Shown here: positions 1 through 13,544 of the stretch, one piece after another
Position numbering within the stretch: the stretch's first letter is position 1
Layout of the letters: every line of letters begins with the position of its first letter
Source of the DNA: Clostridia bacterium
GTDB taxonomy: Bacteria; Bacillota; Clostridia; TANB77; CAG-465
DNA length: 13,544 nt
NCBI GenBank assembly: GCA_045536565.1
Contig: JAZSNU010000001.1
Coordinates: 1 to 13,544, forward strand
Reading direction: 5' to 3'
The notes under the pieces: generated by a model
Seen by the model: the letters and a program-made list of their open reading frames with translations, nothing else
What the model was told of the DNA's origin: nothing
The model's database searches: none
Translations under genes and position numbers: made by a program

Positions 1-53
1 TGATGCCGAAAATACTTGAGCATAAAAGCTTCGGGAAGATAGGGGGTCGCCAA
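1..53 (+). rRNA. rrf: 5S rRNA, 3' part (truncated by window start)
   Basis: GCCGAAAATACTTG...CGGGAAGATAGG...GTCGCCAA matches the helix V/loop E/helix IV and 3' helix I pattern of clostridial 5S rRNAs. It lies 10 nt before tRNA-Asn, a common rrn-distal arrangement in Firmicutes. Confidence 0.75.
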
Positions 54-63
54 TTTTAAATAT

Positions 64-139
64 TCCTCAATAGCTCAGTCGGTAGAGCGCTCGGCTGTTA
101 ACCGATAGGTCGTTGGTTCGAGTCCAACTTGAGGAGCCA
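64..139 (+). tRNA. tRNA-Asn (anticodon GTT)
   Basis: 76 nt cloverleaf: acceptor stem TCCTCAA/TTGAGGA, D-arm GCTC-AGTCGGTA-GAGC, anticodon loop CTGTTAA (GTT at 97-99), T-arm GTTGG-TTCGAGT-CCAAC, discriminator G and encoded CCA (137-139). Confidence 0.98.
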
Positions 140-141
140 AA
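128..141 (+). repeat. att core copy 1 (attL, within tRNA 3' end)
   Basis: CTTGAGGAGCCAAA, identical to 1306-1319. Confidence 0.9.
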
Positions 142-143
142 AT

Positions 144-170
144 AGCGGGTCGCAAGGCCTGCTTTTTGTT
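144..170 (+). terminator. Intrinsic terminator supplied by the element after tRNA-Asn
   Basis: Stem AGCGGGTC/GGCCTGCT (two G-U pairs), GCAA tetraloop, followed by TTTTGTT. Confidence 0.8.
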
Positions 171-260
171 ATATGTGTAACCCTGAAATGTGTATTTTAA
201 AGCATTTTTGGGTTTTTACAATTTTTTTAAGTTGTACAGAGTATGTATAAAGTTGTTGGC

Positions 261-283
261 ATTGCAGTACTTATTGCAGTACT
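261..283 (+). repeat. Tandem ATTGCAGTACT x2, putative integrase arm-type sites (left arm)
   Basis: ATTGCAGTACT at 261-271 and 273-283 (12-bp period). The same core recurs as a pair at 1216-1233. Confidence 0.7.
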
Positions 284-351
284 TTTTATATAGATAATGC
301 AACAGAAATTAAGGCTGTTACTTTTAATTTTAACAAGAACATAGTATAATA

Positions 352-366
352 CAAATAGTAATTTGA
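352..366 (+). other. Dyad site CAAAT-AGTA-ATTTG(A), putative upstream cassette boundary
   Basis: 5-bp inverted arms around a 4-bp spacer, 11/14 identical to 1088-1101, and immediately after TATAAT (345-350). Confidence 0.4.
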
Positions 367-381
367 CATTCAATTTTCACT

Positions 382-431
382 CTACTAATGGTTGATTACT
401 CCTCATTCAACCATCATTCAACCATTAGTTC
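382..431. promoter_or_regulatory. Putative autoregulatory operators of the XRE gene
   Basis: 12-bp inverted repeat ACTAATGGTTGA (384-395)/TCAACCATTAGT (418-429). Each half has the form C(A/T)AC-N5-GTT(G/C). There is an 11-bp tandem duplication CATTCAACCAT (404-414, 415-425), and TACAAT at 455-460 just downstream. Confidence 0.55.
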
Positions 432-480
432 GTGTTATTTTTCTTAAAATGTACTACAATTAAAGAAAGGGAGGTGTCTT

Positions 481-1089
481 ATGGACCAAATAAAAATAGG
501 AAGGTTTATTGCCGAGTGCAGAAAAAAGAAAAATCTTACACAAGCACAATTGGCAGAAAAATTGAATGTAACCGACAGAGCCATATCAAAATGGGAGACG
601 GGCAAAGCAATGCCTGATTCCAATATTATGCTTGAACTTTGTTATATGCTTGGAATAAATGTAAATGAATTATTATGTGGGGAGATGATTGATATGGAAC
701 AAAAGGATGAACAATTAAATGAACTGGTTTTTCAGATGGCAACAAATGAGGAAAGATATCATAAACGACTACTGCATTCCGCTTATGTGATTGTCTCAAT
801 CAGCGTGATAGCACTTATTTGTCTGATTACTTTAATATCACTCCTTATTCCCGAATGTGGATTTCAAGACTTTTTGATAATAGTGTCTGTTATACTATTT
901 ACAATTCCTTGTATTATTGCTCTTAAATTTAAGGTAGAAACAGGTTATTATGAATGTAAGAACTGTCAACATATGTTTGTTCCTAACTATAAAGAGATTG
1001 CCTTGTTGATGCGAACACCAGCTAGAAGATTGTTGAAGTGTTCTAAATGTGGAAAATGGACTTGGTGCAAAAAACTAACTAAGAGATAA
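481..1089 (+). CDS. XRE-family HTH regulator with two transmembrane helices and C-terminal zinc ribbon
   Basis: N-terminal IGRFIAECRKKKNLTQAQLAEKLNVTDRAISKWETGKAMPD (HTH_3), two hydrophobic segments, and CKNC...CSKC at the C-terminus. RBS GGGAGGT upstream. Confidence 0.93.
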   Translation: MDQIKIGRFIAECRKKKNLTQAQLAEKLNVTDRAISKWETGKAMPDSNIMLELCYMLGINVNELLCGEMIDMEQKDEQLNELVFQMATNEERYHKRLLHSAYVIVSISVIALICLITLISLLIPECGFQDFLIIVSVILFTIPCIIALKFKVETGYYECKNCQHMFVPNYKEIALLMRTPARRLLKCSKCGKWTWCKKLTKR

Positions 1090-1101
1090 ATTACAATTTG
1101 A
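1087..1101 (+). other. Dyad site TAAAT-TACA-ATTTG(A) overlapping XRE stop codon, putative downstream cassette boundary
   Basis: Begins with the TAA stop (1087-1089) and is a degenerate direct repeat of 352-366. Confidence 0.4.
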
Positions 1102-1213
1102 TTTTGATTTAGTAAAGGATAAGTAATAAGGACTAGTAATATATTTGTGATTATCGTAATGTAGTTAGTGCAAATTATGGATATAGTATAATATACGTTA
1201 AATTATTTTGCCG

Positions 1214-1233
1214 TTGCAGTACTACGGCAGTAC
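1214..1233 (+). repeat. TTGCAGTACT-ACG-GCAGTAC, putative integrase arm-type sites (right arm)
   Basis: GCAGTAC at 1216-1222 and 1227-1233 (11-bp period), about 72 bp before the second att core, in the same orientation as the left pair. Confidence 0.7.
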
Positions 1234-1305
1234 AAAAGAAACAGCAAAAACATAAAATATAGTTATATCATGGGCTACAAGGCATATTTTTTAGTACGTG
1301 CATCG

Positions 1306-1319
1306 CTTGAGGAGCCAAA
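1306..1319 (+). repeat. att core copy 2 (attR; displaced tRNA 3' fragment)
   Basis: CTTGAGGAGCCAAA, identical to 128-141. Confidence 0.9.
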
Positions 1320-1322
1320 TAT

Positions 1323-1348
1323 ATCCAGGAGTATTTCCTGGATTTTTT
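1323..1348 (+). terminator. Intrinsic terminator, probably the original rrn/tRNA-Asn terminator
   Basis: Stem ATCCAGGA/TCCTGGAT, loop GTATT, then a T run. It starts 5 nt after the CCA of the duplicated tRNA end. Confidence 0.85.
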
Positions 1349-1411
1349 GCTTTTTATATGGTTTTGTGATATTATGGTAAAATGTTATTATAAATTCTGA
1401 ATATATTTCGA

Positions 1412-1440
1412 TTGAAAAGTTAACATAAATATGATATAAT
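1412..1440 (+). promoter_or_regulatory. SigA-type promoter for GNAT gene
   Basis: TTGAAA (1412-1417), 17 bp, TATAAT (1435-1440) with extended -10 TG. Confidence 0.8.
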
Positions 1441-1488
1441 GATATGGTATTAAATAATAAACAACAAAGGATTAAGGAGTTGAACAAT

Positions 1489-2436
1489 ATGATAAATATT
1501 AAGAAATTTGAAATGGCAAAAGACTATGACAGGGTAATTAAATTTTTAGGTGATAGATATAAAGAAAATAAAAATATGGAATGCTGGTTACCAGCAAGAT
1601 TTGATGATTTAGTTTATCGAATTGATACATTGTATAAAGATGAGAGAGGCTTAAAGGCATCAAAAGACTATATTTATATTTTTCAAGAGAATGATGCAAT
1701 TGTTGGAATAATACTTCCGGATGGAGATTCTTTTAATAGCTCTATTAAAAGAGGATATGAACACATTTTTACACAAATGTTAAATATGGCTGAAAAAGAG
1801 TTATTACCATTATTTAAGCCTGATGAAAATGGAATAGTAAATTTTTTAGTTGTATCTCATGATAGTCTTAATTACCAAGCAGAAGAGCTTCTAAGAAGAG
1901 GATATGTTAGAGATGATGCAGGAGATTATGATAATGTTGCATTACCACAAGAAACTAATTATACTATTGAGTTACCAGTAGGTTTTAAGCAAGTGTTTGG
2001 AGAAAACTATCCAGATATAGTGAAAATGAGAACCTGTCACTATGGATTTCACCCTCAGGATGACGACAACAATTTGTACAAAGAGTATGCAGAGGGTGGG
2101 CTTTCATACCAAGCAAGAAAGAAGTCTCAATTTTATCCAGATAGTTTTGAAAGTTTGATTGTAACTGATGATGGAGATATGTGTGCTTATTCTTTTTGCT
2201 ATGTAGATAAAAATACAAATACGGCATTCATAGAGCCTGTATCTACAAGAGAAAAGTATAGAAAAAGAGGATTGTGTAAGCAAATGCTACATGGAACTAT
2301 AATTAGGCTAAAAGAAATGGGAATAGAAAGAGCATATATAAATTCTTTTGATTGGCGAAAAAAAGTATATAATAGTGCGGGTTTTGAAACAGAAGATTCA
2401 ATTAGTTTTTGGTATAAAAATATTAATACTAAATAA
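1489..2436 (+). CDS. GNAT-family N-acetyltransferase (two-domain length)
   Basis: C-terminal FIEPVSTREKYRKRGLCK (motif A) and KKVYNSAGF (motif B). Start moved from 1444 to ATG 1489 because AAGGAG lies at 1474-1479 and the -10 ends at 1440. Confidence 0.88.
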   Translation: MINIKKFEMAKDYDRVIKFLGDRYKENKNMECWLPARFDDLVYRIDTLYKDERGLKASKDYIYIFQENDAIVGIILPDGDSFNSSIKRGYEHIFTQMLNMAEKELLPLFKPDENGIVNFLVVSHDSLNYQAEELLRRGYVRDDAGDYDNVALPQETNYTIELPVGFKQVFGENYPDIVKMRTCHYGFHPQDDDNNLYKEYAEGGLSYQARKKSQFYPDSFESLIVTDDGDMCAYSFCYVDKNTNTAFIEPVSTREKYRKRGLCKQMLHGTIIRLKEMGIERAYINSFDWRKKVYNSAGFETEDSISFWYKNINTK

Positions 2437-3282: not shown

Positions 3283-3312
3283 AAACACGATAGTGATACT
3301 ATCGTGTTTTGT
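3283..3312 (+). terminator. Intrinsic terminator after transglycosylase
   Basis: Perfect 12-bp stem AAACACGATAGT/ACTATCGTGTTT with a 3-nt loop. Confidence 0.8.
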
Positions 3313-3313
3313 G

Positions 3314-3342
3314 TTTACAAAGTATACATAATGTGATATAAT
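3314..3342 (+). promoter_or_regulatory. SigA-type promoter for orphan/phosphatase operon
   Basis: TTTACA (3314-3319), 17 bp, TATAAT (3337-3342) with extended TG. Confidence 0.8.
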
Positions 3343-10288: not shown

Positions 10289-11020
10289 ATGCTTGTATTA
10301 AATATTAAGAATATATTAAGGAATAAATTAACATTAGTATTGTTTGGATTAATATCTATACTTGTAATACTTACAATAATTGTATATACACTAGCCATGA
10401 AATCAAATATTTTAAGAGGAACTAAAATAGGAGATATTATTGGTAGAATAGGAAGTGATAATAATATAATTAATATGACAAGTTATAGTGCAGAGTTTGA
10501 AATTACGGTAAAAAGTAATAAAAATACAAATACATACACTATGAAGGAATGGTATAAAAAAGGAATTGGAACAAAACAGGAGTATTTGGATAGCAGTAAT
10601 AATAAAGTTACAATACTTACATTAAATAACAAAACTATAATACAAAACGAAAATCAAAAAAATGTTATGGTACTTAATGAATATATAACTAAATATACAA
10701 ATTTACTTAGTATAAATACCTTTATAGACATATACCAAAAATATAAAGAAAAAGATTGTTGTTTTGATGCAAATAGTTATGAAAAAGTAAATAATATATA
10801 CATGATATTAGACAATAGTTGTAAAATGGGAGAAAATTGTAATTGTGATGTAAGTGAAATAGTTAAAAATGTTAGTAAAATAGAATTAAAAGTAGATAAA
10901 AATACAGGAAAACCTATTACATATATAGTATATGACAATGACAAAAAGGAGTGTATAAGCATAGTATATAACAAGTTTGATATTAATGCAGAAATAAAAG
11001 AGAAAGAGTTTAAGGAATAA
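10289..11020 (+). CDS. GerS/YdcC-like (LolA-fold) membrane-anchored sporulation/germination protein
   Basis: N-terminal TM helix, then SYSAEFEITVKSNKNTNTYTMKEWYK and C-terminal KIELKVDKNTGKPITYIVYD...IVYNKF, which resemble GerS-type proteins. Its position before mazF matches the ydcC/gerS-alr-mazE-mazF locus. Confidence 0.6.
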   Translation: MLVLNIKNILRNKLTLVLFGLISILVILTIIVYTLAMKSNILRGTKIGDIIGRIGSDNNIINMTSYSAEFEITVKSNKNTNTYTMKEWYKKGIGTKQEYLDSSNNKVTILTLNNKTIIQNENQKNVMVLNEYITKYTNLLSINTFIDIYQKYKEKDCCFDANSYEKVNNIYMILDNSCKMGENCNCDVSEIVKNVSKIELKVDKNTGKPITYIVYDNDKKECISIVYNKFDINAEIKEKEFKE

Positions 11021-11085: not shown

Positions 11086-11472
11086 ATGAAAGTAAAAAGA
11101 GGAGATATATATTATGCTGATTTAAGTCCGGTAATAGGTAGTGAACAAGCAGGAGTAAGACCAATACTTGTTGTACAAAATGATATAGGTAATAAATTTA
11201 GTCCTACAATAATAGGGATAGCAATAACATCAAAACAAAAGGCTAAACTACCTACACATATAGAAATAGAGGGAACAAAATATGGGCTTGATAAAGATTC
11301 AGTTATATTAGCAGAGCAAATTAGAACACTAGATAAAAGAAGACTTAAAGAAAAGGTAGGAAGATTAGATAAAGAAACTATGGAGAAAGTAAAGAGGGCA
11401 ATAGAGATAAGCTTTGGGATAAGAGGAGAGCTAAATCTTGAAGAGATGTATTTAAGAGGATTGTTTGAGTGA
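11086..11472 (+). CDS. mazF: MazF/PemK-family endoribonuclease (EndoA type)
   Basis: [45 protein letters not shown] and [17 protein letters not shown] closely follow B. subtilis NdoA. Catalytic Arg (GVRP) and Thr (AITS) are retained. Confidence 0.96.
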
Positions 11473-13172: not shown

Positions 13173-13544
13173 ATGTCGTATGCAGAGAAAATAAAGAAAA
13201 ATAATACTATTATAAATGGTATGATTGAAGATGTTATACAATATATGAAGCAAAACAATATATCTGCAATAGAAGAAGAAAATGGTGAATTTAAATTAAA
13301 TGAAATGGCTTCACAAATAATGAAATATGAGCTTAATAAAATACTATTAATTTATGATAGAGAATTTTATTATTTAAAGGACAGAGAAAAATATAATACA
13401 AATATTACTATAAGAAAGCATAATGATATAGATGCTTTTGGACACAGTGGTGGTATGGAACTTGCATCAGGAACAGCAGAGGCTATAAAAAAATTAAGTT
13501 CTGAATTAACATATTCAAAAGACAAAAATGGAAGAATTAGATTT
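13173..13544 (+). CDS. Hypothetical protein, N-terminal part (truncated by window end)
   Basis: GAGGGG RBS then ATG 13173. Open for 124 codons to the window end (MSYAEKIKKNNTIINGMIEDVIQYMKQ...). It is not in the supplied ORF track. Confidence 0.8.
   Translation, partial: MSYAEKIKKNNTIINGMIEDVIQYMKQNNISAIEEENGEFKLNEMASQIMKYELNKILLIYDREFYYLKDREKYNTNITIRKHNDIDAFGHSGGMELASGTAEAIKKLSSELTYSKDKNGRIRF

Follow-up and report, generated by a model that had tools for sequence, protein, structure and literature searches.

Can a single regulatory gene move as a cassette between bacterial chromosomes when its borders are a pair of short palindromes? The question is raised by a 13,544-nt stretch of DNA from a Clostridia bacterium (hereafter the window; contig JAZSNU010000001.1, assembly GCA_045536565.1), near whose left end a gene for an XRE/Cro-type helix-turn-helix (HTH) protein lies between two near-palindromic sites, here called dyads, of the form YAAAT-N4-ATTTR. 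By comparing the locus with its homologues, we find that positions 353-1100 form a discrete single-gene cassette of ~750 bases bordered by the two dyads, and that the cassette has a wide horizontal spread, its copies, ~90% alike, standing at dozens of unrelated sites of gut bacteria in at least 41 different combinations of flanking sequence. The sites it occupies are reusable sockets with zero, one or two genes each: cargo other than XRE occurs in them, one dyad serves two neighbouring cassettes, and empty sockets retain one. With moderate confidence, we explain the locus as a travelling XRE cassette lodged in an expression socket inside a tRNA-Asn islet, with the dyads as joints. The cassette reading is supported because the comparative data, namely breakpoints, flank families, shared sockets and empty sockets, decide the matter.

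The sequence features from which a first-pass annotation had started all proved accurate. The left dyad, CAAAT-AGTA-ATTTG(A) (CAAATAGTAATTTGA, 352-366, forward strand), lies one base 3' of a perfect TATAAT hexamer (345-350); the right dyad, TAAAT-TACA-ATTTG(A) (TAAATTACAATTTGA, 1087-1101, forward strand), overlaps the end of the XRE gene, whose TAA stop codon (1087-1089) supplies its opening three bases. Both have inverted arms around a 4-nt spacer, and the identity of 11/14 between 353-366 and 1088-1101 was reproduced. The best fit, however, is as inverted copies (12/14 for 352-365 against the reverse complement of 1087-1100), and the test of inverse orientation gave 10/14 as direct repeats versus 12/14 as inverted repeats. 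The pattern YAAATN4ATTTGA has two matches in the window, both of them the dyads, and two or more matches arise in 6 of 200 dinucleotide-preserving shuffles, a weak test, the pattern having been taken from the data themselves. The case against coincidence comes instead from comparison, since homology to many other loci begins and ends exactly there.

We mapped these breakpoints by aligning window positions 1-1600 (blastn) with 80 loci that carry XRE homologues, 68 of them 78-94% identical at the protein level. The 68 loci lie in metagenome-assembled genomes (MAGs) titled Bacilli, Clostridia, Acutalibacteraceae, Oscillospiraceae, Erysipelotrichales, Christensenellaceae, Anaerovoracaceae and, once, Gastranaerophilaceae. 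An alignment start was counted as informative if the other locus extended at least 30 nt further to the left; of the 63 such starts, 47 fall at 346-360 (14 at 351, 12 at 353 and 18 at 360), five at 369-378, and 11 at 414-481, mainly from distant homologues. Among the 75 loci with more DNA on the right, 66 alignments end at the right dyad (51 at 1099-1101 and 15 at 1089-1097), and the remaining nine, at 699-768, are distant homologues. Homology thus breaks at both dyads, as the first-pass annotation had predicted for a mobile cassette, while the interiors are 81-94% identical to the window in DNA.

Outside the breakpoints, the surroundings change from locus to locus. Flanks of 80 nt, the window included, fall into 32 clusters on the left (n = 51) and 50 on the right (n = 64), and the 48 loci with both flanks make up 41 combinations. 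The neighbours are ordinary chromosomal genes of many kinds: in a Pfam search of 96 open reading frames (ORFs), drawn from 113 non-redundant flank ORFs of at least 140 aa in the 68 loci, an IS1595-like ORF is the sole type of mobile-element gene, lying upstream of the cassette in seven loci that have their left flank in common. One locus (L190; G301:C46) has, in oriented coordinates, a ~24-nt direct repeat (right-type dyad plus flank) at 536-560 and 3308-3332, bracketing a 2.8-kb segment of a small reverse ORF, an IS1595-like transposase gene, a promoter and the XRE cassette. In four gut metagenome runs, positions 436-1131 are covered at a summed depth of 29-544, and 175-348 and 1132-1305 at 0-12, with loose contig ends at 353; the runs consist of contigs, the best share of the stretch in one run is 0.28, and uncovered parts are uninformative. 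No inverted cassette was seen by eye among ~50 junction pairs.

To the left of the cassette stands what we call module B (288-351, forward strand), a terminator-like hairpin (299-321), a T-run and the predicted -10 TATAAT, copies of which occur before unrelated genes. Module B homology continues through the left dyad to 365-366, where it stops, and XRE cassette homology begins within that same dyad. Copies that are 84-88% identical, dyad included, precede unrelated genes in four sister-genus loci (G017:C12, G013:C9, G092:C13 and G091:C53), and a further copy at G017:C11 is 93% identical over 56 nt with a diverged dyad; matches at E <= 0.01 occur in 11 of 13 sister-genus genomes. Wherever a copy keeps the dyad, the dyad directly abuts a Shine-Dalgarno sequence. 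The suggestion that the upstream -10 is a resident promoter accordingly gains ground, in that the hexamer appears to belong to a reusable terminator-promoter module.

On the right, module D (1102-1141, forward strand, ending ...TAATAAGGACTAGTAATA) follows other cargo at G017:C12 and G090:C29 and a bare dyad at G089:C31. It is rare, with three clear copies in 79 family genomes and remaining matches about as frequent as those of a control pattern. Right dyad and module D together recur 3' of other cargo in two loci: BLAST homology to the window sets in at 1084 for L023, whereas L035 first passes through a diverged stretch and matches from 1111 on. In L023 (G017:C12), modules B and D bracket unrelated genes of 92 and 161 aa with a third dyad-like sequence, GCAAATTACAATTAG, between them, and the second gene is followed by GATAAATTACAATTTG and module D. 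At G090:C29, an ABC-permease/response-regulator/histidine-kinase operon ends 36 nt 5' of CAAATTACGATTTG, after which come module D, the right arm of the islet and the tRNA repeat, whereas at G089:C31 the module B hairpin, one dyad and module D are consecutive and free of genes.

Module B also occurs upstream of polA in the sister genus. Seven species further removed have a radical-SAM-type gene, or the 3' part of one, immediately 5' of polA; no dyad was seen in the upstream stretch inspected, and G088 has one chance motif inside the gene. Six close sister-genus species have five different inserts there; in three of the six, the insert reads module B, left dyad, variable cargo, AAATTACAATTTA (truncated in one) and the polA leader. 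Between two species, module B agrees at 100% over 82 nt and the adjacent polA at 93%.

Socket families with other promoters end in the same joints. Promoter module P2, defined at L113, consists of a hairpin, TTGCTT, 17 nt, TGATATAAT, ...TCGA and then CAAATAAGAATTTG; it is unrelated to module B, ends in the same dyad and recurs in relatives before other sequences, with eight further full or partial copies. Its cargo includes genes for a patatin-like protein (L238), a P-loop protein (L239), and a DUF3784 protein and an 879-aa beta-helix protein (both L237); complete P2 sockets each end in YAAATTCCAATTTR, three of four with TCGAAC directly after. In modules B and P2 alike, the -10 is located 2-13 nt 5' of the left dyad. 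The closest view of a change of cargo comes from L226, which matches L113 at 97% over 804 nt (EamA gene, spacer and promoter) up to the left dyad, past which L226 has a chloramphenicol acetyltransferase (CAT) family gene (PF00302, 3.7e-29) where L113 has the XRE gene. Downstream of the CAT-family gene (817-1458 of L226, G308:C6) stand, in this order, a left-type dyad, 135 nt of non-coding DNA and a right-type dyad; inspected by eye, the 135-nt piece shows a long inverted repeat.

A Bacilli MAG (L192, L224) has a third socket family 3' of rplM-rpsI, the units of which are separated by repeated copies of the rpsI 3' region with a terminator and GTAGCATAC repeats. The first unit reads promoter, AAATAGTAATTTG, a 52-aa gene, AAATAGTAATTTGA, XRE, TAAATTGTAATTTA; the second promoter, AAATAGCAATTTG, VanZ, AAATTACAATTTA; and the third promoter, AAATAGTAGTTTA and an ICMT-like gene. 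A single dyad separates the 52-aa gene from XRE in L192. We had also considered a cassette array around G317:C11, where the dyads turned out to be scattered among ordinary genes with no array.

In GC-richer hosts, the junctions reveal that the dyad is part of a longer palindrome. The left junction consensus there is an extended -10, 9-14 nt, (T)CGAY, then AAAYWWGAATTTGA, then CGTTCAATTTTCACTC, and the right one is TAAATTCCAATTTR followed by TCGAAC and diverse hairpins. Outer arms thus extend the dyad, since socket halves joined according to this consensus would give TCGAYAAAT-N4-ATTTRTCGA; the arms are near-symmetric, only 5 nt long where GC is low and as long as 9-11 nt in other hosts. At up to two mismatches, the extended motif has 113 matches in 41 genomes versus 40 for a reversed control, or 105 versus 40 once eight copies of one genome's unrelated palindrome are removed. 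A 20-nt palindrome unrelated to the dyads, CGAAAAATCWWGATTTTTCG, is present in at least eight copies on eight contigs of G322.

Five empty sockets (L043, L284, L285, L286 and L287) have one dyad between promoter and terminator and no gene, and in four of them the dyad is the extended 22-nt palindrome. A pattern of 25 specified positions (-10, full palindrome and TCGAAC) had only two matches in the metagenome collection, L284 and L285, each a gene-free succession of promoter, one near-perfect 22-nt palindrome and terminator; a looser pattern found two genomes among 201 relatives (L286, L287) versus none for the reversed control. By eye, the right flank of L287 is like those of the occupied XRE sockets L171, L128 and L150. 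Carriers with zero (L043, L284-L287), one (the window) and two genes (L023) therefore exist, as anticipated by the first-pass annotation.

How would such a socket work? In the window, it would consist of module B on the left (288-351) and the short 3' module D on the right (1102-1141) within the 1.18-kb islet, with the YAAAT-N4-ATTTR dyads as joints between socket and cassette and a good arm kept on the outer side of both dyads when the socket is occupied. Expression would come from the socket promoter, the left dyad forming the first transcript bases. Swapping of single-gene cassettes behind a resident promoter is supported by these sequence comparisons; whether the exchange is by recombination within the dyads, most likely via an enzyme acting in trans, we judge to be about evenly balanced. 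We propose a recombinase, whose core sites have just this geometry of inverted arms on either side of a short spacer; its most likely source would be the host or a gene encoded elsewhere. Of the second recombination layer imagined by the first-pass annotation, then, the exchange layout has comparative backing, whereas the dedicated recombinase did not materialize beside the cassettes.

Several observations weigh against this explanation, beginning with the enzyme. We found no recombinase domain in the 16 window ORFs and no integrase in the 96 flank ORFs of the 68 loci (Pfam); the bacterium's own genome has three Xer-sized tyrosine-recombinase ORFs (308, 337 and 325 aa, one with a stop codon), none tied to a dyad, and no serine recombinase. 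The left and right 4-nt cores of one cassette differ consistently (AGTA vs TACA; AAGA or TTGA vs TCCA), a difference that would not arise if an integrase simply used the core as its overlap region. Nor are the exchange points within the dyad fixed, because L138 and L140 have near-identical interiors with a different left dyad half and promoter family, and L156 has the promoter family of L111 on a distant interior. Low-GC hosts, the window included, have only the 5-nt arms, and at the 'emptied' polA socket L025 a two-gene cargo was removed by an internal deletion with its ends ~20 nt inward of each dyad, not by clean excision. The bare motif is also not enriched genome-wide, contrary to what had been foreseen for accessory-gene borders: in the bacterium's own genome, where 1,070 gene starts were called crudely, the 60-nt stretches 5' of these starts hold 15 matches versus 10 for the reversed control (<=2 mismatches), a count on which we dropped the candidate of a general 5'-leader motif, and the bare 13-mer AAATTNCAATTTR has 27 matches versus 19 for the control in five genomes; only the extended form is enriched. 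Finally, all data are assemblies, mostly MAGs, in which left-right combinations, although not single junctions, could partly be chimeras, and a circular or excised form was not seen in the four contig-only runs, where rare forms would escape. When 49 cassette interiors are placed in a tree, those with AGTA-type dyads group in a single clade. Searching the bacterium's own AT-rich genome for its dif site with an arm motif gave hundreds of matches and was uninformative.

The explanation that competes most seriously, although we think it unlikely, is that the dyads are expression signals: a leader element by the Shine-Dalgarno sequence, a 3'-end element, paired mRNA ends or an operator. Under this explanation, short-homology recombination would shuffle the modules, with 13-14 nt of shared sequence available at gene borders because every such gene keeps its dyads, and a dedicated enzyme would be unnecessary. 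The classical case of module shuffling at short shared sequence is the 'linker' model for phage modules. The placement of the dyads is as this predicts, in that the left one abuts the Shine-Dalgarno sequence (TTTG-GAGG, TTTGTAAGGAG) in most module B copies and, at 2-13 nt from the -10, falls on or close to the start of the transcript, and the right one lies 0-36 nt past the stop codon and ahead of a terminator, with 52 of 64 right flanks folding at -10 kcal/mol or better and containing TTTT. The variable exchange points, the ordinary deletion in L025 and the lack of an enzyme in the window and flank ORFs would also be accounted for. However, 13-14 nt is short for RecA-type exchange, and dozens of independent junctions fall within such a stretch. 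For the empty sockets, in which the promoter runs into the terminator across one palindromic dyad, no expression role is evident; genes of the bacterium's own genome do not generally carry the motif in their leaders; and the outer arms give a 22-nt palindrome that includes non-transcribed or flank bases.

A second alternative reverses the roles of cargo and spacer: the mobile piece would be the right-type dyad/terminator/promoter/left-type dyad unit, resembling a miniature inverted-repeat transposable element (MITE) whose terminal inverted repeats are the dyads and which a transposase moves between genes. A 'cassette' would then be no more than the gene that happens to lie between two of these elements. 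Such spacers are indeed bounded by ~19-nt inverted repeats (CAAATTCCAATTTGTCGAAC against the reverse complement of ...TCGACAAATAAGAATTTG) that are best conserved at their termini, several sequence-unrelated spacer families have the same ends, and there are compact cases of 83-150 nt, namely L141 and the EamA-XRE spacer of L113. The latter folds with the dyads as closing stem (z = -2.15, a value that 4 of 200 shuffles reach), whereas the L141 spacer folds without one. We nonetheless consider this decidedly improbable: the XRE gene itself moves, with breakpoints at the dyads and spacers changing around it; no consistent target-site duplication is seen at the 51 left and 64 right junctions; empty sockets place the dyad between promoter and terminator parts, the reverse of what is predicted; and no matching autonomous element was identified.

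Far less probable still is that the dyads are operators for the enclosed XRE protein, 14-bp palindromes to which a Cro/CI-type dimer would bind, one an autorepression site at the transcription start and the second at the 3' end. A 5-4-5 palindrome right after the -10 has the classical operator position and size for the Cro/CI-type family, and the dyad lies beside XRE homologues in several lineages (L032, L012 and, in a variant form, L011). Yet the same dyads flank many non-XRE genes, and the dyad is independent of the XRE protein because G017 and G091 have module B and the dyad with only distant HTH paralogues (35-39% over the HTH part) and no XRE orthologue. It is instead a longer repeat (384-395/418-429) that stays with all XRE homologues examined, even in the dyad-less loci L014 and L018. 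As for a chance pair of near-palindromes in a 28% G+C genome, the shortness of the motif, the shuffles that reach two matches of a post-hoc pattern and the missing genome-wide enrichment give it a negligible standing, and it is refuted by breakpoints of dozens of loci that coincide with both dyads and by the recurrence of dyads at other cargo borders, in unrelated sockets and in other bacterial classes.

Returning to the travelling cassette, several known systems invite comparison, first of all the integron that the first-pass annotation had invoked. The likeness extends to mostly one-gene cassettes without their own promoter behind a resident one, one site per cassette border, varied accessory cargo that includes a resistance-family gene, and empty platforms; modules B and P2, with a predicted -10 before unrelated cargo, appear to serve as resident platform promoters. 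An attC site is 57-141 nt long and folded, whereas the border here is a 14-nt dyad with 5-nt arms (22-26 nt with the outer arms), and no longer conserved repeat is found at the 64 right junctions. Neither the window ORFs nor the flank ORFs include an integrase gene adjoining the platform, and the sockets are dispersed singly or in twos, each with a terminator, in Firmicutes-type gut bacteria. The integron-like layout thus holds as regards the promoter platform and the single site per border, and membership among integrons does not, there being no IntI and no attC.

Another parallel is offered by the dif (pdif) modules of Acinetobacter Rep_3 plasmids, in which one or a few accessory genes lie between inverse short sites and are shuffled between backbones (PMC13141974, PMC6449649, PMC7399989). 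The modules also agree with our cassettes in that they contain no recombinase, the backbone is bounded by the same sites in alternation with gene modules, and the spacers vary. Exchange at pdif sites relies on XerC and XerD of the host. Inversely oriented sites without a recombinase are what the window has, its dyads matching at 12/14 as inverted copies around a single regulator gene; L110 and L118, with a right core in the opposite sense, are exceptions to this orientation. The pdif site itself is 28 bp long, with a XerC arm, a 6-bp spacer and a XerD arm (PMC13141974), whereas the dyads have a 4-nt spacer and near-symmetric arms and are neither 28 bp long nor of the 11-6-11 Xer type. Our loci are also chromosomal and in Firmicutes-type bacteria, as opposed to plasmid-borne, inversions were not seen in ~50 loci, and likeness of the dyads to chromosomal dif is not established.

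Mobile insertion cassettes, that is, MITEs with passenger genes such as MIC231 of Bacillus cereus, are non-autonomous and moved in trans. They share with the XRE cassette the small passenger-gene unit bounded by short inverted repeats and differ in that we find no target-site duplication at the 51 left and 64 right junctions, no matching insertion sequence, and empty sites that retain a full dyad, which is not expected of a cut-and-paste transposon. The reuse of near-identical promoters before non-homologous genes, within and between genomes, is seen for B (four sister-genus loci and the window) and P2, and agrees with the reused or 'mobile' promoters of prokaryotes, a pattern described without a defined joint (PMC3575422). 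The promoters here, by comparison, have a specific dyad end, a terminator and a matching 3' partner. For the carrier alone, the appropriate comparison is with integrase-less tRNA islets such as the cis-mobilisable elements of streptococci: it shares the direct repeats at the tRNA 3' end, the lack of an integrase, the short end repeats and, in relatives, tandem accretion (L027, L028, L035), and differs in being only 1.18 kb and serving as a socket frame.

The cassette opens with a leader (367-480, forward strand) that contains a 12-nt perfect inverted repeat, ACTAATGGTTGA / TCAACCATTAGT (384-395/418-429), and an 11-nt tandem duplication (403-424) of the unit TCATTCAACCA, one unit of which is missing from some metagenome contigs. 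The inverted repeat is also found upstream of XRE homologues in five other loci, and its probable role is that of an operator for the regulator itself or of a hairpin in the RNA. The gene (481-1089, forward strand) encodes a 202-aa XRE/Cro-type HTH protein (Pfam HTH_3, 1.9e-13) with a hydrophobic middle and a C-terminal CxxC...CxxC, which on the translation we read as a putative transmembrane part and a zinc ribbon. NCBIfam and PDB sequence searches returned only generic HTH matches, the NCBIfam ones sub-threshold; matches to RstR and to a Xer activation factor were likewise sub-threshold (24 bits against a cut-off of 70) and were not used. A plasmid collection gave no useful cassette match (one of 106 nt at 74%) and a phage collection none, and Rfam found only the tRNA in window positions 1-1600.

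That tRNA, a tRNA-Asn (GTT; 64-139, forward strand; ARAGORN, and Rfam tRNA at 70 bits), is the integration target of the islet. Its 3' end forms the left copy of an exact 14-nt direct repeat, CTTGAGGAGCCAAA (128-141, forward strand), which 0 of 200 shuffles equal and which makes an attL-like junction; the right copy (1306-1319), with the native tRNA terminator (1323-1343), makes an attR-like junction (1306-1343, forward strand). Terminator-like hairpins follow both copies, at 144-163 (supplied by the islet) and at 1323-1343. A second tRNA-Asn on contig C6 is directly joined to the equivalent of 1306-1355 (92% over 50 nt), the unoccupied state. From tRNA repeats, hairpins and the unoccupied second tRNA-Asn, we infer that 142-1305 is a ~1.18-kb integrase-less insert, its carrier having both the border direct repeats and the unoccupied copy elsewhere of an integrase-less tRNA islet. 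The left arm (142-287, forward strand), which has ATTGCAGTACTT twice in tandem at 261-284, is 77-84% identical to the stretch following tRNA-Asn in four sister-genus genomes (G017 twice, G020, G023 and G088); the right arm (1142-1305, forward strand), with a second ATAGTATAATA at 1183-1193 and TTGCAGTAC / CGGCAGTAC at 1214-1232, matches the right ends of the tRNA-Asn islets of G017, G088 and G090 at 78-82%.

Related sister-genus islets 3' of tRNA-Asn, some of them in tandem, have common arms and CTGCAGTAC-type short repeats with other genes between (L027, L028, L035, L036). A congeneric species has this tRNA occupied by a 4.3-kb element that encodes a serine recombinase, RepA_N and ParE (L029). 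Short direct repeats lie near both ends of the small islets, in the window (TTGCAGTAC-type, at 261-284 and 1214-1232) as in the rpsI array (GTAGCATAC-type, at ~140-175, 1150-1185 and 2270-2300 of L192); both types look like arm-type binding sites of an integrase that the islets themselves do not encode. Window positions 1-141 are identical to the start of contig C6, and the assembly evidently breaks at a repeat, because both contigs start within one and the same repeated stretch, which ends in tRNA-Asn. From 1444 to its end at 13544, the window carries genes of housekeeping character (GNAT, transglycosylase, M18 peptidase, FtsW/RodA, Dus, MazF); amid these genes lies a MazF/PemK-type toxin gene (11086-11472), preceded by an ORF (10289-11020, 243 aa) with no Pfam match.

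We tentatively suggest, with rather less than even confidence, that the system is a third kind of gene cassette beside integrons and Acinetobacter dif modules, one that would operate in Firmicutes-type gut chromosomes and islets across classes, through palindromic joints of 14-26 nt and an enzyme, possibly a Xer-type one of the host, encoded outside both cassette and socket. Its cargo, single accessory genes that would be excised and reinserted among scattered terminator-promoter sockets, would include a CAT-family gene, VanZ-like genes and a sensor-kinase operon. The dyad strings return only unrelated primers and viral sequences from the open full-text literature, and a keyword search for Firmicutes cassette systems found no description there, subscription journals being outside its scope and an earlier description possible. 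With short sites, and with empty and occupied states both known, the system is directly testable; the sockets, each combining terminator, promoter and landing site, would be natural insulated expression units. For the XRE cassette alone we count at least 41 contexts, distributed over MAGs labelled Bacilli, Clostridia, Erysipelotrichales, Christensenellaceae and others, and one socket carries a resistance-family gene. If our reading is true, gut commensals share single genes by a route that mobile-element finders would miss, its sites being tiny and free of integrase, attC and transposase.

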